A stretch of DNA of 64,000 nucleotides from a bacterium. Lineage in GTDB: Bacteria; Patescibacteriota; Minisyncoccia; Phycocordibacterales; Phycocordibacteraceae. The DNA lies in contig JAHFML010000002.1 in NCBI GenBank assembly GCA_023269085.1, positions 65,266 through 129,265 on the forward strand, in the 5' to 3' direction. Both the position numbers and the translations under genes were made by a program. Shown piece by piece: positions 1,055 to 63,321 of this stretch; position 1 is the stretch's first letter, and the number at the start of each line of letters is the position of its first letter. A model generated the notes under the pieces. That model was not told the DNA's origin. It did not search any database and saw only the letters and a list, made by a program, of their open reading frames with translations.

Positions 1055-1651
1055 ATGGCACTCGTCATTGTTGGGCTCGGGAATCCGGGGAAAGAGTACG
1101 AGAAGACGCGGCACAACGCGGGGCGAAGCGTCGTCGAGCTCGTCGCGAAGGCAGAAGCATTTGATGATTTCGTTTTTAATAAAATGAGCAATGCGCTCGT
1201 CGCGAAGGGCGCGGTCGCGGGGGAGAAGGCGACGCTCGTTTTGCCAGAGACGATGATGAATTTGTCGGGCAAGGCGGTGCTGGCGTTCGTGAAGACGCCG
1301 AAGGCCGCAGAGAAGCTGCTCGTCGTCCACGACGACCTCGATTTGCCGCTCGGCACGATCAAGATGGTTTTCGGGCGCGGGAGCGGCGGGCACAAGGGCG
1401 TCGAGAGCATTATGCGCGCGGTGAAGACCAAAGAGTTTGCACGCCTGCGTGTCGGCGTCGCACCAGCGGGGAAGAAGAATCAAGCGAAAAAATTAAAGGA
1501 TGAAGAAAAAGTCATCAAGTTCGTGATAGGGAAGTGGAAGCCCGCTGAAGAAGCCGAGGTGAAAAAAGTTTTGAAAAAAGCGGCCGAAGCCGTGCGCCTC
1601 TTCGCCGCCGACGGCATCGAGGCGGCGATGCTGTTTGCGAATACGAGGTAA
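1055..1651 (+). CDS. pth: Peptidyl-tRNA hydrolase
   Basis: VGLGNPG..Y..TRHNAG, MNLSG, HDDLDLP, GGHKG. Start moved to 1055, 6 nt after TGCTACCAT. Confidence 0.95.
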   Translation: MALVIVGLGNPGKEYEKTRHNAGRSVVELVAKAEAFDDFVFNKMSNALVAKGAVAGEKATLVLPETMMNLSGKAVLAFVKTPKAAEKLLVVHDDLDLPLGTIKMVFGRGSGGHKGVESIMRAVKTKEFARLRVGVAPAGKKNQAKKLKDEEKVIKFVIGKWKPAEEAEVKKVLKKAAEAVRLFAADGIEAAMLFANTR

Positions 1652-1676
1652 GTATCGAAGTCTGACTTCGATACTT
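1650..1676. repeat. REP-like palindrome, family B (AAGTATCGAAGTC-T-GACTTCGATACTT)
   Basis: Perfect 13-bp arms; overlaps the pth stop and sits at the 3' flank of transposase 1. Confidence 0.9.
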
Positions 1677-1680
1677 CGTG

Positions 1681-2391
1681 TCACCAAGGTTCGAGGGCTA
1701 CAGATGTTAATGACTCGTCATCGGCGTGATATTCGAGATGGCTGGCAAGCAGATCGCGCGCCTCATCCTTGAATGTTTGTACGTCTGGATAAAGCGCACG
1801 TAAGGGCTCGTGTTCGATAATCGGCGATTCTACAATCGAGAGAAACGCGGGGAGGCTGGAGAATTCATACGTGGTCGCCCAATTCCACGCATCATCAAAT
1901 TGTTCGGACGACCGCTTTAATCCGCCCGGGTATAATTCAAGCACGTTCTTGACCTGAATATAGAACGCGAGGTATCTAAGATGCGCATCTTCGGATACGG
2001 TACGACTTCGGTACGCGCCTTGGAACAGACTCCCACGCTCATCATATTTCGCGTTGAAGTGCGCAGTCATGCTTCCGAACACACGCTGCAGAAATTTCGT
2101 CGTTCCGTCTTCACGTATTTCTTCGATAAGGAGATGCACATGGTTGGGCATGAGTGTCCAAGCAAGAATATGAACAAGCGGTTCAGGTTCCGGCCACCAT
2201 TCCGGCCGGAAGAAATCATCGTGTCCCTCGACACTTTTCTTCCAGTTATCGTCATGAAAAGTGTCGTTCATGTAGAACAACAACTTTTGGAAGCGGCGTT
2301 GATCGGAGGCATCACGCGTGATATCCATACCGCGCACCCCACGCTTGGTCACATGCATAATCGAACCGATCCCATACGGCTCTACTCTCAT
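1681..2391 (-). CDS. HUH/Y1 transposase (IS200/IS605 TnpA superfamily, RAYT-like) no. 1
   Basis: HVTKRG, WTLMPNHVHLL (HUH), SLFQGAY, YI; flanked by inverted family-B palindromes; no tnpB. Confidence 0.85.
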   Translation of the reverse strand: MRVEPYGIGSIMHVTKRGVRGMDITRDASDQRRFQKLLFYMNDTFHDDNWKKSVEGHDDFFRPEWWPEPEPLVHILAWTLMPNHVHLLIEEIREDGTTKFLQRVFGSMTAHFNAKYDERGSLFQGAYRSRTVSEDAHLRYLAFYIQVKNVLELYPGGLKRSSEQFDDAWNWATTYEFSSLPAFLSIVESPIIEHEPLRALYPDVQTFKDEARDLLASHLEYHADDESLTSVALEPW

Positions 2392-2407
2392 ACAGTCAAT
2401 TGTAGCA

Positions 2408-2438
2408 CGTAGTATCGAAGTCAGACTTCGATACTACG
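2408..2438. repeat. REP-like palindrome, family B (CGTAGTATCGAAGTC-A-GACTTCGATACTACG)
   Basis: Perfect 15-bp arms; opposite orientation to the 1650 copy; supplies the last codons and TGA of the hydrolase gene. Confidence 0.9.
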
Positions 2439-3023
2439 GATATCGGCGATAAGCTCGGGAAAGGTCTCTTGGTTGAAGTGTTGGCGATCTTCGAATACGC
2501 GAGCGGTCGCGTTCGGCAGGGCGGCTTGATATTTTTGTAGTTCAGAAAATGGCACGACAGGATCATCTTTGCTGTGGTAGAGGAATACATGTCCGCTTTG
2601 TTGTTCGAAGAGTGCGAGCGAAGAAGGGGCAGCGAATTCACTCGTCATGTCTTCCATATCAGTCGAGTACGCGCCGGCGACGATGAAGGTCGCTCTGATG
2701 CGTTTCGATACCTGTTCCTCCGAGAGATAGCGAACAAGGAAGCTGGCGCCGAGCGAATGACCGACGAGAATAAGATTGTCGTCGAGAAGCGGGAGAATCT
2801 TCTTGAAGAGGAGCGCCCATTCGGCATACTGCGCGTCTGAAGCATTCGGCATACGCGGAGCGAGCACATCGTATTCTGTGCCAAGCGTTTCTTGGAGTCG
2901 AGCCTTCCAGTCTGAGTGGAATCGATAACGATCAAGATCAATCTTTCGATTCTGTAAATCAGAGAGATATGCTTCGTGGGTCAGGAATGTGTTTCCGCCA
3001 TGAATGACTACGATTTGTTGCAT
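2421..3023 (-). CDS. Alpha/beta hydrolase (RBBP9/YdeN-like)
   Basis: IHGG, GHSLGA nucleophile elbow, HSKDDPVVP, QHF. Confidence 0.85.
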   Translation of the reverse strand: MQQIVVIHGGNTFLTHEAYLSDLQNRKIDLDRYRFHSDWKARLQETLGTEYDVLAPRMPNASDAQYAEWALLFKKILPLLDDNLILVGHSLGASFLVRYLSEEQVSKRIRATFIVAGAYSTDMEDMTSEFAAPSSLALFEQQSGHVFLYHSKDDPVVPFSELQKYQAALPNATARVFEDRQHFNQETFPELIADIRSIEV

Positions 3024-3051
3024 GAGGTGAGTATAGCAGATTATTTCTTAC

Positions 3052-3078
3052 AAGTATCGAAGTCAGACTTCGTTACTT
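3052..3078. repeat. REP-like palindrome, family B (1 mismatch)
   Basis: AAGTATCGAAGTCAGACTTCGTTACTT; overlaps the rpsA stop. Confidence 0.85.
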
Positions 3079-4197: not shown

Positions 4198-4233
4198 ATA
4201 TATAAGCGGCGCGGATTTTCCGAGGCGGTTCTG

Positions 4234-4252
4234 TCCAAGGTCGAACCTTGGA
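4234..4252. repeat. REP-like palindrome, family A (TCCAAGGT-CGA-ACCTTGGA)
   Basis: Perfect 8-bp arms; lies in the probable rpsA 5' leader. Confidence 0.9.
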
Positions 4253-4315
4253 ATGCAGGGTTAGCCGACTCCTACTTCTTCGCACGCGATGAGGGGAGTG
4301 TAGCACAGAGCGTAT

Positions 4316-4346
4316 AAAAGCTAAAGGACCTTCTTGACGAAGGTCC
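4316..4346 (-). terminator. Probable intrinsic terminator
   Basis: Minus strand GGACCTTC-GTCAA-GAAGGTCC followed by TTTAGCTTTT. Confidence 0.55.
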
Positions 4347-4369
4347 AGTCCTATAGAGCCGGTTGTTGG

Positions 4370-5210: not shown

Positions 5211-5214
5211 TTTT

Positions 5215-5556: not shown

Positions 5557-5574
5557 TTTCGAGAGATATTCATC

Positions 5575-8057: not shown

Positions 8058-8076
8058 TCCAAGGTTCGACCTTGGA
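8058..8076. repeat. REP-like palindrome, family A
   Basis: TCCAAGGT-TCG-ACCTTGGA, 5 nt after the gyrA stop. Confidence 0.9.
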
Positions 8077-8471: not shown

Positions 8472-8490
8472 TCCAAGGTTCGACCTTGGA
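8472..8490. repeat. REP-like palindrome, family A
   Basis: TCCAAGGT-TCG-ACCTTGGA abutting the transposase 2 stop codon. Confidence 0.9.
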
Positions 8491-9150
8491 TTAATCAGGG
8501 GCGTAGGTAAGCCACTCGGTGACGAGCTCTTTAAACTCCATGCCAGAATCGAAATATCCAGGCAAGGCATTGGCGGTGAGGATGATATTCTCGGCACGCG
8601 TCTCGCCGAGATAATCGCGATAGCTTGATGGCGCGTATTGCGCGAGATATCGTTCTGCGGCCGCGCGGTCTCTGATCCCCGTCTCTTTCCATTTCTGTTC
8701 GATAATCTTCACTGGGTTGAGATGAATATACGAAACGAGATAGCGCAAATAACGGTCATCCGCGACATGAGTTGCCTTGAACTTCCCTTGGAAGAGGGAG
8801 CCGTTCCGGTCGTTCTTCTTATTGAAATACATCGTATAACCGGTAGTGAGCTTCTGCATGAACTTGCTGATGCCGCCTTCTTGAAGCTCGCGCACGAGGA
8901 GATGGAAATGGTTTGGCATAAGGCAGTACGCAGCAATCTCGACGAGCGGTTCTCCTTCTCGTTTTCCCACCAACTCGTCCAAGGTTCGACCTTGGAGTTT
9001 TAGAACGACAGGAGTGCTTTGGTTCGCAAAATAGAGAAGAGCAAGGAAGCGACGGTAGTCACTTTTGTCTAAGAAGACTTTCCGTTTCTCGGTGCCGCGA
9101 TTGTAAATGTGGTAGTACTCTTCTGGCGCGAATGCGAATGTTCGTTGCAT
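8491..9150 (-). CDS. HUH/Y1 transposase (RAYT-like) no. 2
   Basis: YYHIYNRG, YCLMPNHFHLL (HUH), LFQGKFK, YIHLNP; flanked by inverted family-A palindromes. Confidence 0.9.
   Translation of the reverse strand: MQRTFAFAPEEYYHIYNRGTEKRKVFLDKSDYRRFLALLYFANQSTPVVLKLQGRTLDELVGKREGEPLVEIAAYCLMPNHFHLLVRELQEGGISKFMQKLTTGYTMYFNKKNDRNGSLFQGKFKATHVADDRYLRYLVSYIHLNPVKIIEQKWKETGIRDRAAAERYLAQYAPSSYRDYLGETRAENIILTANALPGYFDSGMEFKELVTEWLTYAPD
8978..8996. repeat. Family-A palindrome inside the transposase 2 CDS
   Basis: TCCAAGGTTCGACCTTGGA, translated in frame as LQGRTLD. Confidence 0.9.
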
Positions 9151-9171: not shown

Positions 9172-9194
9172 TTTCCAAGGTCGAACCTTGGAAA
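9172..9194. repeat. REP-like palindrome, family A
   Basis: TTTCCAAGGT-CGA-ACCTTGGAAA, inverted relative to the 8472 copy; just upstream of the transposase -10 box. Confidence 0.9.
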
Positions 9195-18516: not shown

Positions 18517-19680
18517 ATGCCATGGCACAAGAAGCGCGTGTATCTCGATGTCGCCGCTGGGGTGGTGGGGAATTCGTCGTCGCCGCACGAGGAGGGCCGA
18601 GCCACGAAGGCAGTGCTTGAAGAGGCGCGACGTGATATCGCACGTCTCGTCGAGGTGCAGGCCGATGATGTCATCTTCACGAGTGGCGCGACGGAGAGTA
18701 ATGCAATCGCTATTCTCGGGATCCCGCGCGCGCTTCGCGCGCGCGGGGCGAGCAACATACACGCGCTCTACCTCTCGACCGCGCACGCCTCGATTGTCGA
18801 GAATATGAAAGTGCTCGAGAGTGAGGGTGTCGCTATTGAGGCGTTGCCTATTCGCGAGTCTCGCGTCGACACCGAGGCGCTTCGTGCGATGCTACGACCC
18901 GAGACGGTGCTGGTCGCGATGGAAGCCGTCTGCGGCGAGACGGGCGTGGTATGGAATACGCGTGCGGTTGCCGAGGTTCTTCAAAAGTACAAAATTGGAC
19001 ATGATATGTCCGATTTGGGTGGACACCTAGTGTCCACCCGTCTGCGGGTGTTTTTGCATGTCGACGCGAGTCAGGCGTCATTGACCGAGAAGATTTCGCG
19101 CGAGCACTTCGGCGCGGACACGCTCACGCTCGACGGCGCGAAGGTCGGGCCGCGTGGTATCGGCCTACTCGTCGCGCATCGGACGATACCGATGGCGCCA
19201 CTCTACGCGGGTGGCGGGCAGGAGCGGGGAGTGCGGCCGGGGAGCGAGGCGCCGGAGCTCGCGCGGGAGTTCGCGGCGGCGCTTCACGCCGCCACAGATG
19301 GTGCTCCTGCATTTCGCGCCGCCGCAGAGCGGCGGCGCGTCGAGCTTGTGACGAATCTCACCGCTATTCCAGGTTTGGTTATCAATGAGGGCCGTACGCA
19401 AGCGCCGAACATCCTCAACCTCTCGCTCCTCGGCCGCGATACGGATTATCTCGTCGCGCTTCTCGACGAGGCCGGCTTCGCGCTCGCGACGCGGAGCGCC
19501 TGTGAGACCGACAGCATGACCGGCTCGCGCGCGGTTGAGGCGCTCATGGGCGACGCCGCGCGCGCTCGCGCGACCCTACGCGTCTCGTGGGGGAGCGCGA
19601 CGCGTCCGCGCGACCTCACGGATTTTGCAAAGGCACTTTCGCGTGCGGTCGCATTCATTGACAGCGCCAACAAGAGGTAG
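18517..19680 (+). CDS. iscS: Cysteine desulfurase (IscS/NifS class V aminotransferase)
   Basis: VYLD, FTSGATESN, HVDASQ, GGGQE.G.RPG, RSACE; carries a 16-codon palindrome insertion. Confidence 0.85.
   Translation: MPWHKKRVYLDVAAGVVGNSSSPHEEGRATKAVLEEARRDIARLVEVQADDVIFTSGATESNAIAILGIPRALRARGASNIHALYLSTAHASIVENMKVLESEGVAIEALPIRESRVDTEALRAMLRPETVLVAMEAVCGETGVVWNTRAVAEVLQKYKIGHDMSDLGGHLVSTRLRVFLHVDASQASLTEKISREHFGADTLTLDGAKVGPRGIGLLVAHRTIPMAPLYAGGGQERGVRPGSEAPELAREFAAALHAATDGAPAFRAAAERRRVELVTNLTAIPGLVINEGRTQAPNILNLSLLGRDTDYLVALLDEAGFALATRSACETDSMTGSRAVEALMGDAARARATLRVSWGSATRPRDLTDFAKALSRAVAFIDSANKR
18992..19039. repeat. Tandem family-D plus family-C palindromes, in frame in iscS
   Basis: AAATTGGACAT-GAT-ATGTCCGATTT then GGGTGGACAC-CTA-GTGTCCACCC; 48 nt, read as KIGHDMSDLGGHLVSTR. 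Confidence 0.9.
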
Positions 19681-24630: not shown

Positions 24631-25261
24631 ACGACTCAATCTGAAGGGCTATCTCGTCATCAGTGCGGTGATTGTTCTCACGGTTGGTGTTGGTGTCCTT
24701 GTCTTCGTTGGCGCGACGAGCAATACCTCAACGACAGTTCCCACCGCGACCGGATTGCCGGTGGCAGGGCAGACACAACCGACGACTTCAGGATCACATG
24801 CTCAATCGGTGGCTCAAGGCTCGTTCGCCCCTGCGGCGGGAGGACAGACACAATCGGTATTGACGCTCGTTTCGCGCGCTGGCGGCACGATTGTAACTAA
24901 AGATTTCTTGCACAATGGCGAGACGGTTGCGGACGTGGTAAATCCAGGAACGTATGTGCTCGCGGGGAGTCTCGGCTATTGCACCGCGAGCGGTGTGTGC
25001 GGCGCGAATGCGTCAACGACTGATTTTTCGATTTCCTATGCGACGAGTACGCAATTCTTCAACATTATCCTTCTCGCCGAGCCGGTCGGCCTTGTGCGTT
25101 CCGCCGCCGAACGTTTTTTCCTTGCGCGTCTCGGCATTGGCGAACAAGCCGCTTGTGCGCTGAACTATTTTGTCGGTACACCCTACTGGGTCAACGAGTC
25201 GTACGATAACAAAAACCTCGGCTTCAGCTTCTGCCACGGTGCGACGGCTCTGCCGAAATAA
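24617..25261 (+). CDS. Hypothetical membrane-anchored exported protein
   Basis: TM plus Thr/Pro linker and Cys-containing domain; coupled to the upstream gene. Confidence 0.65.
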   Translation: MPENKRLNLKGYLVISAVIVLTVGVGVLVFVGATSNTSTTVPTATGLPVAGQTQPTTSGSHAQSVAQGSFAPAAGGQTQSVLTLVSRAGGTIVTKDFLHNGETVADVVNPGTYVLAGSLGYCTASGVCGANASTTDFSISYATSTQFFNIILLAEPVGLVRSAAERFFLARLGIGEQAACALNYFVGTPYWVNESYDNKNLGFSFCHGATALPK

Positions 25262-26186
25262 ACTTGGACATCGGATGTCCAAGTTTGCGCAACCACGCCT
25301 TCTGGCGGCGAGCGTAGTGCCAGAGTCGGGCCGAGAGAATTGGGAGAAGGGAAGCTTCGTCGCGCTCATTGCGGAGGTACCCGCCAATGATGCGATACTC
25401 GAGCCCGAGCTCGGCGAGCCGCGCGTCGCCGACCTGCTCGCGGACGCGAGCGACCTCGTCGATAAGGCCGCGATCGAGCGCGCTCGCGAGCCGTGCGTCG
25501 ATGCGCGCGCGGAGCTCTTCTCGCGGCGGATCAATCACGATCCACTTCGAGCGATAGCGAGATCCCGAGTCTGTCGAGGGACGATTGCGGCGCGGGACAG
25601 AGCCAAGCGCGTCGATTATCTCGAGAGCGCGGATGAGTCGACGACGGTTGAGCGGGTCGAGCTCGGCGGCGCGACGTGCGTCGGCACGCTGCACCCGCGC
25701 ATACAGCTCTTCGGTCGGGAGCTGTTCGAGCTCGGCGCGAAGGCTCGGATTCGCGTCGACGCTGGCGGGGAGCCCGTGCAGAAGCGCATCAAAATAAAAA
25801 TGCGTCCCGCCCGCGAGGATCGGCAATTTGCCGCGGCTCGTTATCTCTTTGATAAGTCGCGTCGCGTCCTGCACGAAGTCGCCCGCAGAATAGGCATCGC
25901 TCGCGTCACGAATGTCGATAAGGTGGTGTTGCACCCCCTGCATCTCTTCGAGCGTAATCTTCTCGGTGCCGATATCGAGGCCGCGATATACCTGCCGCGA
26001 GTCGACCGAGATTATCTCGCCACCTCGCGCGAGCGCCTCCTGCACCGCGCGCGATGACTTGCCTGAAGCGGTCGGGCCCGCTATGCAGAGGATCCGTTCG
26101 CCAGCAGACTGGCTCAGGACGTCGCTTCGCTCCGTTTGTGCTGTCATTGGGGGCGATGGTATCATATATTGCATACGATTACTCAT
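25224..26186 (-). CDS. miaA: tRNA dimethylallyltransferase
   Basis: GPTASGKS, DSRQVYRGLDIGT.K, HHLID, GGT, YARRQ.W; start uncertain. Confidence 0.95.
   Translation of the reverse strand: MSNRMQYMIPSPPMTAQTERSDVLSQSAGERILCIAGPTASGKSSRAVQEALARGGEIISVDSRQVYRGLDIGTEKITLEEMQGVQHHLIDIRDASDAYSAGDFVQDATRLIKEITSRGKLPILAGGTHFYFDALLHGLPASVDANPSLRAELEQLPTEELYARVQRADARRAAELDPLNRRRLIRALEIIDALGSVPRRNRPSTDSGSRYRSKWIVIDPPREELRARIDARLASALDRGLIDEVARVREQVGDARLAELGLEYRIIGGYLRNERDEASLLPILSARLWHYARRQKAWLRKLGHPMSKFISAEPSHRGRS
25260..25286. repeat. Family-D palindrome in the miaA 3' end
   Basis: AAACTTGGACAT-CGG-ATGTCCAAGTTT (perfect 12-bp arms); read as KLGHPMSKF. Confidence 0.9.
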
Positions 26187-30779: not shown

Positions 30780-33206
30780 TTATTTCAAATATTCAGCCGC
30801 TTCAGCGGGAGTGAACGAAGTGGGCGAGACAGACTCGGGGAGATAGATGCGACGGAGACCTTTCTTCAAAAAGAGACCCTGCTTTGATTTGTAGAGCACG
30901 ATAGTCTTGCCGGTCTTGGGGTGCTTACCGATCTCTTGTACGATCTCGACGCCGCGCGGCGGCTGCTTCGGCGCGGCAAGGAGCGCGAGCGCCGTGTCGA
31001 GCGTGACCGTGTAGGGGTCGCCGATCGCGGGCTTGAGCGAGCGGAATTCGCCATCGCTCCCGACGTAGGGGCCGAAGCGGCCGGTCGAAGCGAAAACGGT
31101 TTTGCCGGTGCTTGGGTGCATCCCGAGCTCGCGCGGGAGCGAGAGATAGTGGAGCGCGTCGGCGAGGGTCACCTGCGAGAGGTCGGTGCCGGCGGGGATG
31201 CTCGCGCGCTTGGCGGCAACCTTCGGGCGACCCTTTGCGCGCTTCTTCGGTTTCTTCGATTCAAGGTTCGACCTTGAATCCGAATCCTTAAGGTCGGACC
31301 TTGGTTCGGGTTCGGGCAACGCCATCTCGACATATGGCCCGAAGCGACCCGTCTTGATATAAATAGGCGCGCCAGTCGTCGGGTCATTGCCAATGGGCTC
31401 GTCACCTTTGAGCTCGACGCCCTCTTCGGTGCGCGCACCGAGACAGTCGGGATACTTCTTACAGCTCATGAAGATGCCGCCGCGACCGAGCTTCAGCTCC
31501 ATCGGGCTCCCGCAGAGAGGGCAAGTGAATTCGGGCGACACTTCGCCGAGCGAGGTCGCCTTCGGGAGCTTATCTTTTTCCTTCACCTGTCTCTCAAAGG
31601 GGCCGTAAAATTCGGAGAGCGTCTCCTTGTAGCCGCGCTCGCCGCGCGCGATCTCGTCGAGCTCGTCCTCCATCGTTGCGGTGAAGGAGTCGCTGATGTA
31701 GGTCGCGAAGTTTTCTTCGAGCCAGCCCGAGACGACCATACCGGTCGCCGTCGGCTTCAAGGTGCGGCCGGTCTTCTCGACGTATTCGCGGTCCGAGAGC
31801 GTCTTCATCGTTGAGGCATAGGTCGAGGGGCGGCCGATGCCGCGCTTCTCGAGCTCCTTGATGAGGCCGGCCTCGGTGTAGCGGTTCGGCGGTTCGGTCT
31901 GCTTCTCCTCCTCGCCGAGCGAGAGGAGCGTGAGCGGGTCGCCCTTCGCCACGCGGGGTAATTCGACATCCTCACCCTTCGCTTTCGTGTCGAGTGCGAG
32001 CCAGCCCGGGAAGAGTGTCCGCGAGCCGGTCGCCGCGAAGAGCGGAATGTCGGCATCGGCCTTCGCCGAAATATTCGTTCGCATGATTTTCGCGCTTGCC
32101 ATCTGCGAGGCGAGCGTGCGAACACGGATGAGCTCGTAGAGCGCGTGTTCGTCGGGCGTCGCGCCGGCATGTCCGCATGCGGCATCGGTGGGGCGGATTG
32201 CTTCGTGCGCCTCCTGCGCGTTCTTGCTCGTCGTCTTGTAGGCGCGCGTCTGGGCATACTCTTTACCGAATTCTTGCTCGATGACCGTTATCATTTTCGC
32301 GACGGCTTCGGCACCGAGATTGACCGAGTCGGTGCGCATGTAGGTGATGTGGCCGGCTTCATAGAGCTTCTGTGCGGCCCGCATCGCGCGCGAGGGCGCG
32401 AAGCCGAGACGCGTCGACGCGACCTGTTGGAGCGTCGAGGTGGTGAAGGGCGGACGCGGGGATCGCTCCTCCGCCTTTTCTATAATGTCAGCGACCTGCC
32501 AAGCGGCGGCGCGACCGAGCCTCACGATGCGCCCTGCTTCTTCGCGCGTCGCGGGCTCCTCGACGCAGGTAGTCATCAAGGTCGAACCTTGAACTTCAAG
32601 GTTCGACCTTGATGACGAGAAGGAGGCACGGAGGACGAAATAGGTGACGGGCACGAACGCTTTGATCTCGCGCTCGCGTTCGGCGAGGATCCGGAGCGCG
32701 GGCGATTGCACGCGGCCGGCCGAGAGCCCGTAACGAACTTTCTTCCAGATGAGTCCCGAGAGATCATAGCCGACGATGCGGTCGAGCACGCGCCGCGCCT
32801 CTTGCGCCTGCCGCAAATCTTCGTCGATAGTGCGCGGGTGGGCAAGCGCCTCTTCGATAGCGGCCTTGGTAATCTCGTGGAAGGCGACGCGCTTGGGCTT
32901 CTTCAGCTTCGCCACCTCCTTGATATGCCAGGCGATAGCTTCGCCCTCGCGGTCGGGGTCGGTCGCGAGATACACCTCGTCGGCCTTGGCGGCTGCGGCC
33001 CGTATCTTCTCGATGATCTCCTGCTTCTCGGGCGGGATGATGTAGTGCGGCACGAAGCCGCCCTCGATATCGACCGCATCGATATTGCTCTTGGGCAAAT
33101 CGCGCACATGCCCGACCGAGGCCAAGACCGTGTAGCCTTTCCCGAGGTAGGTGCCGATAGTGCGCGCCTTGGTGGGCGACTCAACGATGAGAAGACGGTT
33201 CGTCAT
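30780..33206 (-). CDS. topA: DNA topoisomerase I
   Basis: IVESPTKA, ATDPDREGE, SAGRVQS, ITYMRTDS, GIGRPSTY; two palindrome insertions. Confidence 0.96.
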   Translation of the reverse strand: MTNRLLIVESPTKARTIGTYLGKGYTVLASVGHVRDLPKSNIDAVDIEGGFVPHYIIPPEKQEIIEKIRAAAAKADEVYLATDPDREGEAIAWHIKEVAKLKKPKRVAFHEITKAAIEEALAHPRTIDEDLRQAQEARRVLDRIVGYDLSGLIWKKVRYGLSAGRVQSPALRILAEREREIKAFVPVTYFVLRASFSSSRSNLEVQGSTLMTTCVEEPATREEAGRIVRLGRAAAWQVADIIEKAEERSPRPPFTTSTLQQVASTRLGFAPSRAMRAAQKLYEAGHITYMRTDSVNLGAEAVAKMITVIEQEFGKEYAQTRAYKTTSKNAQEAHEAIRPTDAACGHAGATPDEHALYELIRVRTLASQMASAKIMRTNISAKADADIPLFAATGSRTLFPGWLALDTKAKGEDVELPRVAKGDPLTLLSLGEEEKQTEPPNRYTEAGLIKELEKRGIGRPSTYASTMKTLSDREYVEKTGRTLKPTATGMVVSGWLEENFATYISDSFTATMEDELDEIARGERGYKETLSEFYGPFERQVKEKDKLPKATSLGEVSPEFTCPLCGSPMELKLGRGGIFMSCKKYPDCLGARTEEGVELKGDEPIGNDPTTGAPIYIKTGRFGPYVEMALPEPEPRSDLKDSDSRSNLESKKPKKRAKGRPKVAAKRASIPAGTDLSQVTLADALHYLSLPRELGMHPSTGKTVFASTGRFGPYVGSDGEFRSLKPAIGDPYTVTLDTALALLAAPKQPPRGVEIVQEIGKHPKTGKTIVLYKSKQGLFLKKGLRRIYLPESVSPTSFTPAEAAEYLK
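31258..31304. repeat. Family-A doublet, in frame in the topA C-terminal region
   Basis: AAGGT-TCG-ACCTT, 14-nt spacer GAATCCGAATCCTT, AAGGT-CGG-ACCTT; read as PRSDLKDSDSRSNLES. Confidence 0.85.
32572..32616. repeat. Family-A inverted doublet (REPIN-like), in frame in topA
   Basis: Perfect 22-bp arms GTCATCAAGGTCGAACCTTGAA-C-TTCAAGGTTCGACCTTGATGAC; 45 nt, read as SSRSNLEVQGSTLMT. Confidence 0.92.
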
Positions 33207-37160: not shown

Positions 37161-38186
37161 ATGTCATTCTGGCAGAAACTCCCGAAACCTTTTTTCGTCA
37201 TGGCGCCGATGGCAGATGTCACCGATGCCGCCTTCCGCGCGCTTATCGCGAGCCGCGCTGCGCCCGACGTTTTCTGGACCGAGTTCGTCTCGGCCGACGG
37301 GCTCTATCACACCCGCGAGATCGCACGGATGCCGGACAATGAGAACCCACTCATGCGCGACCTTTTGAAGAGCAGTGCGGAGCGGCCGATAGTCGCGCAG
37401 ATATTTTCAAACAAGCCGGAGATGATCGCGTATGCGACGCGCGTGGTTGCTGACCTTGGCTTCGACGGCGTCGATCTCAACATGGGCTGCCCTGATAGAG
37501 CGATAGAGCGGCAGGGGAGCGGTGCCGCGATGCTGAAGTCGCCGGAGGTAGCCCGCGCGGTAATCCGCGCGGCGAAGGGTGCGAGTAGCTTGCCCGTCAC
37601 GGTCAAGACGCGTGTCGGGTATAATCGCGAATCGCTCGATGAGTGGCTGCCCGTCTTGCTCGAAGAAGCGCCGGCCGCTATCACGCTGCACCTGCGCACA
37701 CGCAAAGAGTTGTCGCTCGTACCCGCGCAGTGGGAGCTCATGAAGAGGGCGGTCGCTCTTCGCGATAGCCTCAATCCTGACGTACTCCTTATCGGTAACG
37801 GCGATGTGACGAGTGTTGAGCAGGGTAAGCGGCTTGTCGATGAGACCGGTTGCGATGGCGTCATGATCGGCCGCGGCATGTTCGGCAATCCGTGGGTCTT
37901 TGAGGGATTGACGCGCACACCAAGGTCGGACCTTCGGTCCGAATTCTCAAGGTCCGACCTTGGTGTGCGCGAACATGGGCTCTCCGAAAAGCTCGAAGCT
38001 TTAGTTGAGCTCGCGCATAACTTCGAGAAGCTCTTGCCGCCCAAAAATTTCTCCATACTCAAGAAGCACATCAAAGCCTTTGCCACGGGCTTCGACGGCG
38101 CTGCCGATCTCCGCGCGCGCCTTATGCTCGCCGACTCTGCTACTGAGCTCGAAGGGATTGTTGCAGAATACGTAGATGGAGCGTAA
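37161..38186 (+). CDS. dus: tRNA-dihydrouridine synthase
   Basis: APMADVTD, TEFVS, DLNMGCP, G.GAAML, VTVKTRVG, GNGDV, GVMIGRG. Confidence 0.93.
   Translation: MSFWQKLPKPFFVMAPMADVTDAAFRALIASRAAPDVFWTEFVSADGLYHTREIARMPDNENPLMRDLLKSSAERPIVAQIFSNKPEMIAYATRVVADLGFDGVDLNMGCPDRAIERQGSGAAMLKSPEVARAVIRAAKGASSLPVTVKTRVGYNRESLDEWLPVLLEEAPAAITLHLRTRKELSLVPAQWELMKRAVALRDSLNPDVLLIGNGDVTSVEQGKRLVDETGCDGVMIGRGMFGNPWVFEGLTRTPRSDLRSEFSRSDLGVREHGLSEKLEALVELAHNFEKLLPPKNFSILKKHIKAFATGFDGAADLRARLMLADSATELEGIVAEYVDGA
37912..37971. repeat. Family-A inverted doublet (REPIN-like), in frame in dus
   Basis: Perfect 23-bp arms plus 14-nt spacer CGGTCCGAATTCTC; 60 nt, read as RTPRSDLRSEFSRSDLGVR. Confidence 0.92.
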
Positions 38187-38544: not shown

Positions 38545-39576
38545 ATGGCTCACCAGTCGCTCTATCGCACGCATCGCCCAGCAACCTTTGCCGAGGTCGT
38601 GGGTCAAGAGCAGGTGACGCATCCGCTCGAGGAGGCGGTGAAGGCCGGGAAGATCGGCCACGCGTATCTCTTCGCCGGCAGTCGCGGTTTGGGCAAGACC
38701 AGCGTGGCGCGCATCTTCGCCGCCGCTATCGGCTGTGGCGAGCGCGATCTCTACGAGGTCGATGCCGCGAGCAACAACAGCGTCGAGGACATCCGTGCGC
38801 TCAGCGAGGGCGTCTACACTTTGCCTTTCGCGTCGCCGTATAAGGTCTACCTGCTCGATGAGGTGCACATGCTGAGCAAGGGCGCGTGGAATGCTTTTTT
38901 AAAAACGCTTGAGGAGCCGCCCGCGCATGCGGTCTTTATCCTCGCGACGACCGAGCTCGAGAAGGTTCCCGAGACCGTGCAGTCGCGCTGCCAGATTTTC
39001 GAATTCAAGAAGCCGACGCGCAAGGTGCTCGCCGAGATGACGGCGAAGGTCGCAAAGAAGGAGGGCTACACGCTCGAGAGCGACGCCGCCGAGCTCGTCG
39101 CGCTCTTGGCCGATGGCTCGTACCGCGATGCGCTCTCTATCTTGCAAAAGGTCGTTACGGGAACAGAAGAAAAAACCGTTTCGCGCCCGAGGGTCGAAGA
39201 GGTGACTGGCGCACCGCGGCAGAGCCAGGTGCAGGCGCTTGTCGCCGCGCTCGCCTCTGGCTCGCGCGCCACCGCACTTGTCGCTATCGAAGAAACCGCG
39301 CGCTCGGGCACCGACATGAAGCTCTACCTTGAGCTCGTGCTCTCGGCGTTGCGCTCAATACTGCTCATTCGCTATGCGCCCGACCTGCGCGCATCAATCA
39401 TGGCCGAGCTCGGTGCGGACGAATTCTCCGCCCTCGAAGAGATTGTAGGACTTACGAAGTCCCACATAACGCATGCGACACTTCTCGCCTTCCTCACCGC
39501 CGCCGATCGCATCCGCTATGCGCCCATCCCTGCGCTCCCGCTCGAGCTCGCGGTCTTGGAGCTCTTCCCCGAATGA
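38545..39576 (+). CDS. dnaX: DNA polymerase III subunit gamma/tau (short form)
   Basis: LYR.HRP..F.EVVGQ, HAYLF.GSRGLGKT, DAASN, DEVHML, FLKTLEEPP, SRC. Confidence 0.95.
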   Translation: MAHQSLYRTHRPATFAEVVGQEQVTHPLEEAVKAGKIGHAYLFAGSRGLGKTSVARIFAAAIGCGERDLYEVDAASNNSVEDIRALSEGVYTLPFASPYKVYLLDEVHMLSKGAWNAFLKTLEEPPAHAVFILATTELEKVPETVQSRCQIFEFKKPTRKVLAEMTAKVAKKEGYTLESDAAELVALLADGSYRDALSILQKVVTGTEEKTVSRPRVEEVTGAPRQSQVQALVAALASGSRATALVAIEETARSGTDMKLYLELVLSALRSILLIRYAPDLRASIMAELGADEFSALEEIVGLTKSHITHATLLAFLTAADRIRYAPIPALPLELAVLELFPE

Positions 39577-49765: not shown

Positions 49766-50101
49766 ATGAAATTACTTTTCAAATGGTTCATCGCGACGGT
49801 CGCTATCGGCATCGCCGCCCACATCGTCCCGGGCGTCAGCGTTACGCCGACCAGCGCTCTGATCGCGGCCGTCGTCCTTGGCGCGCTCAATCTCTTCATC
49901 CGACCGATTCTCCTCATTCTCACGCTTCCGATTACCATCATCACGCTCGGACTCTTTTCGCTTGTCGTGAACGCGCTTCTTGTCCTCCTTGTCGCGCTCG
50001 TCGTGCCGGGCTTCTCGGTCGCGGGGTTCTGGCCTGCGCTCCTCTTCGCGTTCGTCCTCGCTCTCGTCAATTGGGTCTTCCACTTCTGGACGCATAGTTA
50101 G
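49766..50101 (+). CDS. Phage-holin-family (YvlD/DUF360) membrane protein
   Basis: LNLFIRPIL.ILTLPIT.ITLGLF..VVNA. Confidence 0.85.
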   Translation: MKLLFKWFIATVAIGIAAHIVPGVSVTPTSALIAAVVLGALNLFIRPILLILTLPITIITLGLFSLVVNALLVLLVALVVPGFSVAGFWPALLFAFVLALVNWVFHFWTHS

Positions 50102-50118
50102 GACATCCAGTGTCCTAA
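50098..50118. repeat. Family-D/C-like palindrome over a stop codon
   Basis: TTAGGACAT-CCA-GTGTCCTAA. Confidence 0.75.
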
Positions 50119-57554: not shown

Positions 57555-58070
57555 ATGAATCCGATCCAGACTGGTATCGCTACCGCCCTCGCGCTCGTCG
57601 TTGTCGCCGTTTTCTTCTTCTTCCCGAGCTTGCTCCCCTTTGGCCAATCGGCACCGACAGAGCCAGCACAGGTGAGCGTCGCCGCTACCACTAATCAACA
57701 ACTAGCTTCAACCACTATGCCAACAGAAAATGTTACCGATCTCCAGATAACCGACGAGACCATCGGCACTGGCGCCGTCGCCGCCGCGGGCGACACCGTT
57801 ACGGTCAACTATGTCGGTGCGCTCACGAACGGTACCGTCTTTGACGCTTCGGCGAATCACGGCTCGACCGGCTTCACCTTCCCGCTTGGGGCAGGGCAGG
57901 TTATCAAGGGTTGGGACATGGGCGTCGCAGGGATGAAGGAGGGTGGCAAGCGCAAGCTCGTCATCCCGGCCTCGCTTGCCTATGGCGACCGCGCGGTAGG
58001 GAATGTCATCCCGGCAAGTGCGACGCTCATCTTCGAGGTCGAGCTCGTGAAGGTGCAGAAAGGGAAGTAA
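57555..58070 (+). CDS. FKBP-type peptidyl-prolyl isomerase
   Basis: VNYVG.L.NGTVFDAS, LG.GQVIKGWD, IP..LAYG, LIFEVEL. Confidence 0.95.
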   Translation: MNPIQTGIATALALVVVAVFFFFPSLLPFGQSAPTEPAQVSVAATTNQQLASTTMPTENVTDLQITDETIGTGAVAAAGDTVTVNYVGALTNGTVFDASANHGSTGFTFPLGAGQVIKGWDMGVAGMKEGGKRKLVIPASLAYGDRAVGNVIPASATLIFEVELVKVQKGK

Positions 58071-58119
58071 CCAAGGTTCGACCTTAAGAAATTTGGGCCA
58101 AAGGTCGAACCTTGGTTAC
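58067..58119. repeat. Family-A inverted doublet (REPIN-like), intergenic
   Basis: Perfect 19-bp arms GTAACCAAGGTTCGACCTT / AAGGTCGAACCTTGGTTAC; 15-nt spacer; overlaps the FKBP stop. Confidence 0.92.
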
Positions 58120-59922: not shown

Positions 59923-61214
59923 GCGCGATGAAATTTGAGATAGAGAAGCGCGCGGCCGGCTCTACCGGCCGCGCGGGGCTCATCACGACGCCGCACGGCG
60001 TCATCCGTACGCCTGCCTTCTCGCCGGTCGGGACCAAGGCGAGTGTGAAGGGCATCTTCCCGAGTCAGCTGAAGGCGCTCGGTGCCGAAGTCGTCCTCGC
60101 GAACACCTATCATCTCTATCTCCAGCCCGGCGAGAAGGTGGTCGAGCAGGCGGGCGGCCTCGCGAAGTTCATGGGCTGGGAGGGCTCGTCCCGCGGATCT
60201 TCAGCGGGATGGGGGCCGACCATCACCGACTCGGGCGGCTTCCAAGTCTTCTCGCTCGGCGCGGCCTTTGGTAAAACTATTTCCAAATTCACTCGCGAGG
60301 ATCCCGTGGGTGGACACCTAGTGTCCACCCACGGGCTGGCGCATTTCGATCCTGATGTGGCGAGTCAGCACGGTCAGCTCGCTATCATCGACGACGAGGG
60401 CGTCACCTTCACCTCACACCTCGACGGCTCCTTGCATCGCTTCACGCCCGAGCGCTCGGTCGAGATCCAGCACGCGCTCGGCGCAGACATCTTCTTCGCT
60501 TTCGACGAGTGTACTTCGCCCTCTGAGCCCTATGAATATCAGCGCGAAGCGATGGAGCGCACGCACCGCTGGGCCGAGCGCAGCTTGCAGGCGCATCGGC
60601 AAAATCTTGCGGCAAGAGAGAAACAAGCGCTCTTCGGCATCGTGCAGGGCGGCCGGCACGAAGACTTGCGGCGCGAGTCGGCGCGCGCTATCGCCGCCAT
60701 GGGCTTCGACGGCATCGGTATCGGCGGGTCATTCAGTAAAGAGGACATGCGCGGCGCCCTTGGCGCCGCGGTGGGCGAGCTCCCCGAAGAGCTCCCGCGT
60801 CACTTCCTCGGTATCGGCGAGCCGGGCGATATTCTCGAGGGCATTGCGGGCGGGATGGACCTCTTCGACTGCGTCGCCGCAACGCGCATCGGCCGCCACG
60901 GCTCGATCTATACCCGTCGCGGCATCATCCACCTGACCGGCGAGCGATACAAAGACGACTTCTCGCTGCTCGATCCCGAAATGTCGGACATATCATGTCC
61001 AACATCTGATGTTGGACATGATATGTCCGACATTTTCACGCGCGCGTATGTCGCGCACCTCATCCGCTCTAAAGAGATGCTCGGCTCGACGATCTGCTCG
61101 ATGCACAATCTCGGCTTCATCCTCAACCTCGTCGCGGGAGCGCGCCAAGCTATCCTCGACGGTCGCTTCGATTCCTACCGCGCCGACTTCGTGCGAGACT
61201 ATTACCATGGCTAA
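59919..61214 (+). CDS. tgt: tRNA-guanine transglycosylase
   Basis: TPHG.I.TPAF.PVGT, LANTYHL, TDSGGFQVFSL, FDEC, GIVQGG, D.FDCV..TR; several palindrome insertions. Confidence 0.93.
   Translation: MSAMKFEIEKRAAGSTGRAGLITTPHGVIRTPAFSPVGTKASVKGIFPSQLKALGAEVVLANTYHLYLQPGEKVVEQAGGLAKFMGWEGSSRGSSAGWGPTITDSGGFQVFSLGAAFGKTISKFTREDPVGGHLVSTHGLAHFDPDVASQHGQLAIIDDEGVTFTSHLDGSLHRFTPERSVEIQHALGADIFFAFDECTSPSEPYEYQREAMERTHRWAERSLQAHRQNLAAREKQALFGIVQGGRHEDLRRESARAIAAMGFDGIGIGGSFSKEDMRGALGAAVGELPEELPRHFLGIGEPGDILEGIAGGMDLFDCVAATRIGRHGSIYTRRGIIHLTGERYKDDFSLLDPEMSDISCPTSDVGHDMSDIFTRAYVAHLIRSKEMLGSTICSMHNLGFILNLVAGARQAILDGRFDSYRADFVRDYYHG
60303..60335. repeat. Family-C palindrome, in frame in tgt
   Basis: CCCGTGGGTGGACAC-CTA-GTGTCCACCCACGGG; 33 nt, read as PVGGHLVSTHG. 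Confidence 0.92.
60979..61035. repeat. Family-D inverted doublet (REPIN-like), in frame in tgt
   Basis: Perfect 28-bp arms with a 1-nt centre; 57 nt, read as MSDISCPTSDVGHDMSDI. Confidence 0.93.
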
Positions 61215-63321
61215 CTTCAAACTCCACACTCCCTACCAGCCGGCAGGCGACCAGCCGGCGGCTATCGCGGCGCTCGAGAGCGGACTCGAGGCGGGCATGC
61301 GCCATCAGACGCTCTTTGGCGTGACGGGCTCGGGCAAGACCTTCACCATCGCGAACGTCATCGCAGCGCATGACAAGCCGACCCTCGTCCTCGCACACAA
61401 CAAGACCCTCGCGGCCCAGCTCGCGCAAGAGTATCGCGAATTCTTTCCCGAGAACGCCGTCCACTATTTTGTCTCTTACTACGACTACTATCAGCCCGAG
61501 GCCTATATCGCGCACTCCGACACCTACATCGAGAAGGAAGCAATGATAAACGCCGAGATTGATCGCCTCCGCCACGCGGCAACGCAAGCGCTTCTCACGC
61601 GCAAGGACGTCATCATCGTCGCGTCGGTCTCGGCGATCTACGGGCTTGGCTCGCCGGCAGAATATGAGAAGGTGCACGTGAAGATTGAGAAGGGCGCCGC
61701 GGAGGATCGCGCGGCGCTGATCCGCAAGCTCGTGGGTATCCACTTCGAACGCACGCCTGCCGACTTGAACCCTGGTCAGGTGCGCGCTATCGGGAACTCG
61801 CTCGAGCTGATGCCGGTCAACGAGCGCGTTATCTATCGCGTCGCTTTCGAGGGCGACACGATTGTGCGCATTGATCAGCTCGACCCGATCTCGCGCGCAC
61901 TTGTCGCGTCGCCCTCGTCTATTTTCATATTTCCCGCGAAGCACTTCATCACGAGCGAAGCAGAGCGGGTACGCGCGATCGAGGACATCAAGCTCGAACT
62001 CGATGGGCAATTGGCGAAGTTCAAGAGGGAAGCGAAGCCGCTTGAAGCCGAACGCTTGAAACGCCGCACCTTGAGCGACCTCGCGCTCATCCGCGAGATG
62101 GGTTATACCAACGGTATCGAAAATTATTCGCGCCACTTCGACGGTCGCAAGAGCGGCGAGCCGCCCTTCACGCTTCTTTCATACTTCCCACACCGGAATC
62201 AAGGTCGAACCTTACATACGAATTCTCAAGGTTCGACCTTGATTCCGGATTTCCTTACCATCATCGACGAGTCTCACGTGACGGTCCCGCAGCTCGGCGG
62301 CATGTACGCGGGCGATCGCTCACGCAAGGACGTGCTCGTCGAATACGGCTTCAGGCTCCCTTCGGCGCGCGACAATCGGCCGCTCAACTTCGAAGAGTTC
62401 GAAGAGCGTGTTGGGCAGGTTATCTATACGAGCGCAACGCCGGGCCCCTATGAGCGCGCACATGCTGAGCAGGTAGTCGAGCAAGTCATCCGCCCGACGG
62501 GCCTCATCGACCCGGAGCTCGTCATCCGCCCGGTGTCTGGGGAGGCGGGTGGACACCTAGTGTCCACCCATTTAGACACTAGGTGTCCACCCGCCTCCTA
62601 TCGCGGGCAGGTGGCGAACTTTATCAGTGAAGCCGAGGTCGTCATCAAGCGCGGCGGCCGCGCGCTCGCAACCACGCTCACCAAGCAGATGGCCGAAGAC
62701 CTCTCCTCATTCTTGCGCGAGAAAGGTATAAAAGCCGAGTATCTCCACTCTGACGTGAAGACGATCGACCGCATCGACATCCTCACCAAGTTCCGCAAGG
62801 GCGAGTTCGATATTCTCGTCGGCGTCAACCTGCTTCGCGAAGGACTCGACTTGCCCGAGGTCGAGCTCGTCGGCATCCTCGACGCGGACAAAGAAGGCTT
62901 CTTGCGCAGTGAGACCTCGCTCATCCAGACTATCGGCCGTGCCGCGCGCAACGTGCTCGGCCGCGTGATTCTCTATGCCGACGTGATGACCAAGTCGCTC
63001 GAGAAGGCTATTGGCGAGACCAATCGCCGCCGCGCGCTCCAAGTGGCCTACAACGAGAAGCACAGCATCACGCCGAAGACGATTCACAAAGAGATTCGCG
63101 ACATCGCTGCGAGCATGCGGAGCGACCACCAGAAGACGATTGACGAACTTCTGGTGCTCGACACGCTCGCGTACAAGGATGATCCGAAGGCTTTTGTCGC
63201 GCGTAAGCGAGAGGAGATGGCCGAAGCGGTCGAGAAGCTCGACTTCGAAACCGCCGCGCTTATTCGCGACGAGCTCTTCAAGCTTGAGGACGGCGGGTCG
63301 AAAGGGAAGAAGAAACGGTAA
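61207..63321 (+). CDS. uvrB: Excinuclease ABC subunit B
   Basis: PAGDQP, GVTGSGKT, FVSYYDYYQPEAY, DESH, SATPG, NLLREGLDLPEV, QTIGRAARN; start moved to MANFKL. Confidence 0.96.
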   Translation: MANFKLHTPYQPAGDQPAAIAALESGLEAGMRHQTLFGVTGSGKTFTIANVIAAHDKPTLVLAHNKTLAAQLAQEYREFFPENAVHYFVSYYDYYQPEAYIAHSDTYIEKEAMINAEIDRLRHAATQALLTRKDVIIVASVSAIYGLGSPAEYEKVHVKIEKGAAEDRAALIRKLVGIHFERTPADLNPGQVRAIGNSLELMPVNERVIYRVAFEGDTIVRIDQLDPISRALVASPSSIFIFPAKHFITSEAERVRAIEDIKLELDGQLAKFKREAKPLEAERLKRRTLSDLALIREMGYTNGIENYSRHFDGRKSGEPPFTLLSYFPHRNQGRTLHTNSQGSTLIPDFLTIIDESHVTVPQLGGMYAGDRSRKDVLVEYGFRLPSARDNRPLNFEEFEERVGQVIYTSATPGPYERAHAEQVVEQVIRPTGLIDPELVIRPVSGEAGGHLVSTHLDTRCPPASYRGQVANFISEAEVVIKRGGRALATTLTKQMAEDLSSFLREKGIKAEYLHSDVKTIDRIDILTKFRKGEFDILVGVNLLREGLDLPEVELVGILDADKEGFLRSETSLIQTIGRAARNVLGRVILYADVMTKSLEKAIGETNRRRALQVAYNEKHSITPKTIHKEIRDIAASMRSDHQKTIDELLVLDTLAYKDDPKAFVARKREEMAEAVEKLDFETAALIRDELFKLEDGGSKGKKKR
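62193..62248. repeat. Family-A inverted doublet, in frame in uvrB
   Basis: Perfect 21-bp arms plus 14-nt spacer ACATACGAATTCTC; read as RNQGRTLHTNSQGSTLIP. Confidence 0.92.
62541..62598. repeat. Family-C inverted doublet, in frame in uvrB
   Basis: Perfect 24-bp arms GGAGGCGGGTGGACACCTAGTGTC / GACACTAGGTGTCCACCCGCCTCC; read as EAGGHLVSTHLDTRCPPAS. Confidence 0.92.

Follow-up and report, generated by a model that had tools for sequence, protein, structure and literature searches.

Rickettsia palindromic elements are in-frame palindromes that add short peptides to proteins, a property that is shared by the hairpins of Patescibacteria described here. These hairpins were analyzed in a 64,000-nt stretch of DNA (the window), which belongs to contig C5 in a genome of 711 kb and 14 contigs (G000), and which carries several families of short palindromes together with two Y1/HUH transposase genes that we call RAYT-A and RAYT-B, after the repetitive extragenic palindrome (REP)-associated tyrosine transposases (RAYTs). 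The placement of this DNA within the Candidate Phyla Radiation (CPR)/Patescibacteria lineage, which had been proposed in a preliminary description of the window, is borne out by the best 80 relatives of its transposases, which belong to the Patescibacteria group where titled, with one from Nitrospira.

Several described systems pair Y1/HUH genes with short repeats. REPINs, which are inverted doublets of REPs, are almost exclusively extragenic (PMC5581495, bioRxiv 2021.07.10.451892, PMC3116915), and group-3 REPs have a perfect stem and a 3-nt loop, with the cut chosen via GTAG (PMC8266576). However, the assumption of the preliminary description that RAYT-linked REPs are essentially extragenic is not supported, because in-frame REPs have already been published (PMC3733652, PMC6006769). 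In-frame GTAG REPs were reported in 2013 in uvrA/uvrB and in genes for ligase, tRNA synthetases, and pseudouridine synthases, in-frame CGTC REPs are described as well (PMC3733652), and REPs are also found in frame inside tnpA genes of subclass 2.4 (PMC6006769). TIRYT genes possess flanking terminal inverted repeats with GGGGWSAS, some of which are self-complementary, repeated, and form dimers (PMC3733652). TIRYT corresponds to subclass 2.1 (group 1), which is reported without REP-like sequences, has a heterogeneous C-terminal tail in 2.1.2, and is recognized by the key motifs NHVH or NH[YF]H, W[EQ] or FQ, YIELNP or Y[IV]HLNP, and a distal SS (PMC6006769).

Hairpin families in the window and in the genome

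The hairpins are real and nonrandom, and they are part of a phylum-wide system. For the window, 27 palindromes in four families (A to D) had been claimed, and all were located as described, in numbers that are far over chance. Family A has 15 sites (4237, 8061, 8475, 8981, 9177, 31263, 31290, 32578, 32598, 37922, 37949, 58073, 58101, 62201, and 62228), family B has three (1653, 2413, and 3055), and family D has five (18997, 25266, 50101, 60986, and 61014). Three of the four copies attributed to family C fit the strict pattern (19021, 60312, and 62551), but the fourth (62575) lacks the outer G.

We scored six families (A to F), each defined by a core composed of a 5-bp stem, a 3-nt loop, and a 5-bp stem (5-3-5). 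Whole-genome core counts for families A, B, C, and D are 54, 10, 20, and 14, as compared with means of 0.6, 1.5, 0.2, and 1.0 and maxima of 2, 3, 1, and 4 among 10 genomes simulated with an order-4 Markov model. Within coding sequences (CDSs), as called by a home-made gene caller whose genes cover 72.5% of the genome, the counts are 30, 4, 9, and 9, whereas a protein-preserving synonymous shuffle (n = 100) gave means of 0.41, 0.96, 0.43, and 0.36 and maxima of 2, 4, 2, and 2. The proposed enrichment over a codon-preserving control is therefore observed, except for family B within CDSs, which alone does not exceed its shuffle maximum. Note that the caller missed the 5′ part of RAYT-A and the tail of atpA, and therefore intragenic counts are lower bounds, and that one family A count (C2:132776) is probably due to chance.

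A 3-nt loop defines the commonest hairpin class of the genome (218 with a stem of at least 7, versus 67–129 for other loop sizes). The six families occupy 90 loci, comprising 60 singlets and 30 doublets; same-family pairs are inverted, and mixed-family doublets (2 of 30) are too few for judging nesting as a targeting rule. Forty-three of the 90 loci lie wholly within called genes and are spread over 32 genes, although per base the elements are under-represented in coding DNA (45 of 90, versus a coding share of at least 72.5%). The features of the window are as follows, with strand where one applies.

1650..1676, family B hairpin downstream of RAYT-B
1681..2391, minus strand, Y1/HUH transposase RAYT-B (236 aa; NHVH, LFQG, YIQVKNV; PF01797 E 3.4e-7)
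2408..2438, family B hairpin on the upstream side of RAYT-B, in inverse orientation to the copy at 1650..1676
3058..3072, family B copy, intergenic, right after the rpsA stop
4234..4252, A1 singlet (TCC..GGA), intergenic
8058..8076, A1 singlet right after the gyrA stop
8472..8490, A1 hairpin immediately 3′ of the RAYT-A stop
8491..9150, minus strand, Y1/HUH transposase RAYT-A (219 aa; NHFH, LFQG, YIHLNP, SSY; PF01797 E 1.3e-10)
8978..8996, A1 hairpin in frame within RAYT-A (peptide LQGRTLD), overlooked in the preliminary description
9172..9194, A1 hairpin upstream of RAYT-A
18996..19036, plus strand, composite D + C element in frame in a cysteine desulfurase gene (iscS-like, 18517–19680)
25260..25286, minus strand, D singlet in frame near the miaA 3′ end (peptide GHPMSK)
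31262..31303, minus strand, in-frame A3 doublet in the C-terminal linker of topA (site 2), without outer arms
32572..32616, minus strand, A3 doublet in frame in topA (site 1), with a 7-nt spacer and 6-bp locus-specific arms
37912..37971, plus strand, A3 doublet in frame in dus, with 10-bp locus-specific arms (net +17 aa)
39448..39462, plus strand, family F singlet in frame in dnaX (peptide VGLTKSH), likewise overlooked
50098..50118, C/D hybrid singlet, intergenic, at the end of a holin-like open reading frame (ORF)
58067..58119, A3 doublet, intergenic, after an FKBP gene, with 6-bp arms
60303..60335, plus strand, C singlet in frame in tgt at residue 131 (peptide GGHLVST)
60979..61035, plus strand, D doublet in frame in tgt at residue 358 (peptide ISCPTSDVGHDMSD)
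62193..62248, plus strand, A3 doublet in frame in uvrB, with 8-bp arms
62541..62598, plus strand, C doublet in frame in uvrB, with 11-bp arms

Known RNA families in the window comprise only seven tRNAs, none of which overlaps an element. A promoter scan of positions 1500–9400 returned 1 site versus 3.1 expected, and one family B copy scored as terminator-like in a scan of the same region. A LexA/SOS operator was considered and rejected, there being no PF01726 match in the genome.

Other hairpin types are also present. A large class of GC-rich hairpins with 3-nt loops (AGA, TTC/GAA, and TCC/GGA) is mainly intergenic and terminator-like, with some members in CDSs; it is found at window positions 8435–8459 and 9214–9238 and at many other loci of G000. 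The hairpin at 9214–9238 resides between −35-like and −10-like words upstream of a methyltransferase gene and is conserved in relatives. In addition, a perfect loop-less palindrome of 38–40 bases (center CTCCTA-TAGGAG), unrelated to families A to F, has two copies (C2:115279 and C5:14163).

Pairing of hairpins and transposases in Patescibacteria

Both bracketed ORFs of the window encode Y1 proteins (PF01797), as had been proposed, and the genome has five PF01797 genes in total: RAYT-A and RAYT-B in the window, and RAYT-C, RAYT-E, and one IS200-type tnpA on contig C2. The enzymes RAYT-B, -C, and -E are 28–53% identical to RAYT-A, and all four are single-copy. Each of these four RAYT genes is bracketed by its own hairpin pair, with one hairpin ~20–30 bases before the start and the second just past the stop, which upholds the cognate pairing suggested earlier. 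A genome search for further transposase remnants with 76 queries yielded only one weak 43-aa match on C2.

Genome comparison places 221 further species in the genus of the source genome. RAYT-like genes were found in 59 of 120 other genus genomes (1–10 each) and in 92 of 301 phylum-wide genomes, G000 counted. At 145 of 185 transposase loci the 5′ and 3′ flanks have a common word of at least 13 bases, as compared with 4 of 593 ordinary genes. By sample, this holds for 57 of the 73 loci from the genus, 22 of the 29 from the phylum, 64 of the 80 named loci (some of which may share genomes with the genus or phylum loci), and 2 of 3 other loci. A 5-3-5 core is contained in 121 of the 145 flank-sharing loci, and 83 distinct cores are represented. 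On a tree of 73 proteins, the distribution of cores follows the clades (GACAC, GAAGT/GAGGT-CWG, GACAT/GACTT, AAGG, and TAGG types); the labels were extracted automatically and include a few wrong hairpins.

Repeat abundance had been expected to follow transposase presence, and copy counts of AGGT-N3-ACCT agree with this expectation: at least 20 copies are present in 20 of 59 genus genomes with an enzyme, but in only 2 of 61 without (Fisher p 1e-5). A reversed-core control is flat, without trend.

Identity of the enzymes

The AlphaFold2 (AF2) model of RAYT-A, which was built from a 74-row alignment, has a predicted local distance difference test (pLDDT) score of 92.8. Its top Foldseek match is TnpA-REP 4er8, which is bound to a REP hairpin (E 1.5e-5), and other leading matches are IS608/ISDra2 TnpA. 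Sequence searches of the PDB were weak, because a 4-row profile returned nothing useful and a 74-row profile returned 4er8 only at E 0.025, and therefore the fold claim rests on the AF2 model and Foldseek. Residues H81, H83, and Y141 are invariant across 17 diverse members. By their HUH motif, single catalytic Tyr, and Y1 fold, the enzymes belong to the TnpA-Y1 (IS200/IS605-like HUH) superfamily. An IS200/IS605 insertion sequence as such was rejected as a candidate, given that the enzymes have Y-x3/4-N rather than Y-x3-Q, are 219–236 aa long, and occur as four divergent single copies.

The key motifs of subclass 2.1 are fully matched by RAYT-A and RAYT-E; RAYT-B and RAYT-C have NH[VF]H and FQ, with a Y-x4-N variant instead. 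No C-terminal helix-turn-helix (HTH) domain was matched in Pfam at E 0.01 in RAYT-A, RAYT-B, or the homolog L329, and a weak Bac_DnaA_C match was found in two of five annotated plasmid homologs. All five plasmid homologs have GGG-W-SAS upstream, and four have it downstream in inverted orientation; in three, it forms the arm and loop of a 5-3-5 hairpin, which is perfect in Rhodospirillum. The label of a classical RAYT-REPIN system, as initially applied, is not supported: scores against NCBIfam NF047646 are 30.7 and 50.5 bits (cut-off 80), a GT[AG]G foot is present in 7 of 264 strand views, and the motifs and flanks point to subclass 2.1/TIRYT. From the missing GTAG foot, the low NF047646 scores, and the GGG-W-SAS ends of the homologs, it follows that the system works like RAYT-REPIN systems but stands outside the GTAG groups. 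Its most likely placement is within subclass 2.1/TIRYT, as a branch with short tails.

In-frame inserts and re-used loops

Nine intragenic loci had been described in topA, uvrB, tgt, dus, the iscS-like gene, and miaA, and all are present in host frames that are open and full-length. The further claim that the recurring peptides are indels relative to orthologs is correct for eight of the nine loci, each of which is an insertion, or an insertion with replacement, relative to most of 4–28 same-genus orthologs. The ninth is topA site 2, where the linker is hypervariable and a net indel cannot be defined. Both UvrB and both Tgt peptides are missing in most orthologs (27–28 relatives), and both UvrB peptides align to gaps in a solved UvrB structure. 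In an AF2 model of Tgt, both inserts fall in the only two segments with pLDDT below 50 (residues 109–152 and 359–367). The inserts in dus, the iscS-like gene, miaA, and topA site 1 often overwrite a few host codons, as judged from four or five close relatives. Elements beyond the window, in uvrA, uvrC, tsaD, mutY, ligA, and a ComF-like gene, are likewise inserts relative to relatives (the ComF and holB labels were assigned from Pfam domains).

The same loops are occupied in other species. At 14 insertion sites in eight genes, relatives hold 41 perfect hairpins in 10.8 kb, versus 49 in 146.6 kb elsewhere in those genes, an 11-fold excess. These hairpins come from several families, which are often other than that of G000, and they occupy the two Tgt sites in 6 and 8 of 28 relatives and one TsaD site in 4 of 5. 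By the strict perfect-hairpin count, no relative has a hairpin at the sites in mutY, ligA, and the ComF-like gene or at one uvrC site.

Three further observations concern host genes. Near Tgt residue 14, a GC-rich hairpin is present in 7 of 28 relatives (L104, L107, L112, L114, and others), which is possibly another insertion hot spot. The tgt N terminus of G000 has a 5-nt-loop hairpin at C5:125224. A D doublet at C5:141579–141616 spans the last atpA codons and the stop, and it adds a C-terminal peptide.

Host-gene bias

Genes of DNA replication, repair, recombination, or tRNA modification account for 20 of the 32 host genes, as compared with a background share of 18% by length among 198 genes called in the window and on contig C9 (p 2e-8). 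Further hosts include five tRNA synthetase genes, lepA, and def. Functional categories were assigned by hand after the window hosts were known, and therefore the tests outside the window are fairer: 13 of 25 hosts outside the window are in this category (p 1e-4), as are 9 of 20 outside both the window and C9 (p 0.004). Nine genes carry two or three separate loci, versus 2.2 expected. None of the genes for ribosomal proteins, EF-Tu, EF-G, or GroEL on C9 carries an element. Most likely, the bias arises because the hosts are core genes that are long resident and moderately expressed and that have permissive loops. Targeting may also contribute, but it is less preferred than tolerance and long residence.

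Repair genes host both inteins and hairpins. The uvrD gene of G000 (L318:15197–18196, C9) has an intein-splicing Pfam match, and the uvrB gene of one relative (L030, G014:C21) has an 1100-aa frame in which unrelated sequence of intein-like appearance precedes Walker A.

Subfamilies of family A and orphan families

Family A had been taken as one family with its own enzyme. However, it comprises three subfamilies, and RAYT-A is flanked by singlets of A1 (TCC..GGA), from which the intragenic A doublets differ. A2 (GAGT..ACTC) is present in 5 of 222 genus genomes and adjoins a B-like-clade enzyme in three of them, but not in G000; the A2 copies listed in G125 and G012 all have the loop of the enzyme-flanking copies of their own genome. 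A3 is a 40-bp inverted doublet with a related spacer of 13–15 bases (7 at one locus) and is 33 bp at topA site 1. Apart from the copy within RAYT-A, every intragenic A locus of the window (four in all) is an A3 doublet.

Both B and C have an enzyme in G000 as well as intragenic copies. Relatives encode cognate enzymes for D, F, and A2 (L102, L093, and L329–L331), and the orphan families A2, A3, D, and F are likely relics of enzymes that have since been lost or that are unassembled. At C2:199096–199730, two A2 hairpins ~620 bases apart have a common 20-base neighbor sequence, as if they bracketed a small duplicated or inserted cassette.

Possible traces of movement and rewriting

Perfect outer arms of 5–10 bp, all of them different, are present in 11 of 16 A3 doublets, with one pair in the remaining five (p 3e-23). 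In codon alignments, one arm appears to be host sequence and the other its reverse complement. The arms of a uvrA insert common to G000 and G160 differ by a compensatory pair, which constitutes covariation.

Transposase genes are themselves hosts. An in-frame hairpin resides within 30 of 173 distinct enzyme genes, and in 27 of these 30 it has the core of the flank of the same gene. At one orthologous loop in the enzymes, 15 of 16 in-gene hairpins match their own flank, representing eight different cores; in a permutation for this loop, 14 matches were scored because the list for one flank was cut short, the mean was 3.1, and 14 was never reached in 20,000 tries. Similarly, one tsaD site in G000 and G125 has the same doublet type, with loops that are each those of the respective genome.

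Neighboring genes

Window positions 11101–13316 hold six pilin-like genes (PF18895) in an array that follows a gene for a solute-binding protein. At positions 52572–57209, genes for a 918-aa TraG/TraD-like ATPase and a 625-aa uncharacterized ORF form a possible conjugation or secretion module. On contig C9 (L321:7632–8600), there is a stand-alone 322-aa reverse transcriptase (RVT_1), with family C hairpins further downstream (C9:79361 and 80097).

Explanations for the spread of the hairpins

We consider it probable that mini-hairpins that flank subclass 2.1/TIRYT-type Y1/HUH genes are copied as singlets or inverted doublets by the cognate enzyme. Enzyme-driven movement is inferred. The enzyme would recognize the hairpin and copy it by single-strand cleavage and strand transfer, reading the folded hairpin (stem top and loop) with no GTAG guide. 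Copies in coding DNA would survive if the frame is kept and the loop is tolerant, and we therefore propose that the same loops are struck repeatedly by different families. Fold-back or template-switch synthesis may then copy one flank onto the other, which would yield locus-unique inverted arms and overwrite a few host codons, and resident copies may periodically be converted to the current master hairpin.

Several points weigh against this explanation. A3, which is the commonest intragenic type, flanks no transposase at 182 loci, where six doublets were found, none with the A3 spacer. No constant side was found for the host-derived arm, which reads as the left one in dus and ligA and the right one in topA, uvrB, uvrA, and uvrC. 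No empty allele was seen among the joints listed, which come from contigs only, in three runs of one groundwater study; two of these runs may represent the source itself, and contigs of the RNA run show the inserts neither as filled nor as empty sites. The nearest relatives share only ~77% DNA identity with G000, and thus exact empty sites and the host-derived arm can be read from codon alignments only. Among enzyme-bearing genus genomes, 39 of 59 have fewer than 20 AGGT-N3-ACCT copies and may use other cores, whereas G084 (20 copies) and G131 (48 copies) are core-rich and on a second look have no RAYT-like gene, making them candidate orphan expansions. The genome-level tests also treat related genomes as if independent. 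With regard to the subclass, the TIRYT arm-loop motif is strictly matched by 23 of 123 cores, and a quick tree unites 25 of 27 CPR rows at SH-aLRT 89 with the base left open, so that the subclass is not settled by the tree.

A more far-reaching version of the copying mechanism is, in our judgment, doubtful. In that version, a guide-less HUH system would rewrite resident hairpins, both in host genes and in its own gene, to the master sequence, would generate inverted target duplications by fold-back, and would prefer damage-exposed genes. If this were true, the more than 80 enzyme–hairpin pairs phylum-wide would be a standing, self-updating source of peptide loops in repair and tRNA enzymes.

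It is improbable that the mobile unit is instead the whole hairpin–gene–hairpin cassette, as in IS200-like elements or TIRtrons, with dispersed singlets and doublets as footprints or internal-deletion derivatives of decayed cassettes. The patchiness of the cassettes is consistent with such mobility: only 2 of 16 relatives have RAYT-A, and only 2 of 16 have RAYT-B, at the corresponding locus (the pth locus for RAYT-B), once with a changed hairpin; an enzyme of a different clade occupies the RAYT-A locus of 2 of 16; and a few others keep solitary hairpins at cassette loci. Genomes carry 0–10 such genes, and the doublets are inverted pairs that resemble fused cassette ends. However, a 750-bp cassette could not pass through the frames of dnaE, dnaG, ligA, and tRNA synthetase genes, which are essential. 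Doublet spacers also recur at unrelated loci, which indicates that doublets copy as units; in contigs of the groundwater study, the same 42-bp doublet is found in other flanks, as loose ends. Moreover, among 81 loci the flank pairs have a direct orientation at 50, an inverted one at 28, and both at 3, and the four enzymes are single-copy and diverged to 28–53% identity with RAYT-A.

Very improbable is an origin in which no enzyme takes part, wherein replication template switching and gene conversion make, extend, and homogenize intragenic copies and the transposase is a mere neighbor. Template switching is known to homogenize inverted-repeat arms in coding DNA (PMC8604942), and it would explain the arms, their covariation in uvrA, and the loop flips; A3, D, and F also have no enzyme in G000. 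Nevertheless, template switching cannot create the same 13-mer de novo at dozens of unrelated loci, and it leaves both the clade-specific pairing and the link between copy number and enzyme unexplained.

Finally, although the functional bias (20 of 32 hosts versus 18%, p 2e-8) and the nine multiply hit genes (2.2 expected) would suit a domesticated regulator that binds the palindromes as duplex DNA and coordinates repair and tRNA genes, or else LexA-like operators with this role, this idea is hardly credible, because the sites are not conserved (most orthologs lack them, and others have unrelated cores at the same loop) and the proteins keep HUH and the catalytic Tyr with no Pfam HTH.

The proposed copying of hairpins by cognate enzymes bears on two open questions, namely how REP-type repeats move and what role is served by subclass 2.1/group 1, the largest class-2 subclass of REP-transposase relatives. 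This subclass, reported without a REP-like partner, most likely has one in Patescibacteria, in the form of more than 80 natural enzyme–hairpin pairs that differ by few bases, and therefore the recognition code is directly testable. Locus-unique arms and the matching of in-gene and flank hairpins are fossil traces that constrain the insertion chemistry. Streamlined CPR genomes too carry selfish mini-elements that remodel core proteins, and the recurring QGRTL, RSNL, GGHLVST, and GHPMS peptides are DNA-level artefacts of hairpins, which is relevant to alignment and annotation.

Comparison with known systems

A literature search, conducted mostly outside subscription journals, found no publication on such a system in Patescibacteria. 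Palindromes within genes have precedents; no precedent was found in the accessible portions of the literature examined for the enzyme subclass, the radiation of hairpins without a guide, the inverted arms, or the concerted updating of copies within genes.

As far as those portions extend, the closest likeness is to TIRYT/TIRtron elements, which have NH[YF]H, FQ, Y[IV]HLNP, and a distal Ser pair in ~220–240 aa. The flanking repeats resemble the GGGGWSAS motif in layout, with a strict match in 23 of 123 cores and a direct orientation at 50 of 81 loci; the nearest named homologs carry GGGGWSAS ends. In contrast to TIRYT, the Patescibacteria ends consist of 5-3-5 hairpins that are perfect and diversified (83 cores) and that have either a direct or an inverted orientation, the enzymes have no Pfam C-terminal HTH, and one clade has Y-x4-N rather than Y-x3-NP. 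Patescibacteria also have up to 10 enzyme types per genome of less than 1 Mb, and roughly half of their copies lie within genes, in frame.

REP/REPIN–RAYT systems of groups 2 and 3 (E. coli TnpA-REP 4ER8, Pseudomonas, and Stenotrophomonas) likewise have a single-copy HUH/Y1 gene of the same fold with its own flanking hairpin family, an over-represented cognate palindrome, and spaced inverted doublets, and group 3 has the perfect stem and 3-nt loop. However, the Patescibacteria hairpins have no GT[AG]G guide foot, their elements are 19–60 bp rather than ~100 bp, 43 of 90 loci in G000 are within CDSs, and they have locus-specific inverted arms.

The intragenic GTAG/CGTC REPs of Opitutus terrae and others (PMC3733652) are alike in their short in-frame peptides, their common dimers, and their bias to genes of excision repair, replication, ligase, tRNA synthetases, and tRNA modification. 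The Patescibacteria system differs from them in that its sequence families are unrelated, its enzymes are of another subclass and occur in another phylum, its cognate enzyme–hairpin pairs are many, and its loops are re-used by different families across species.

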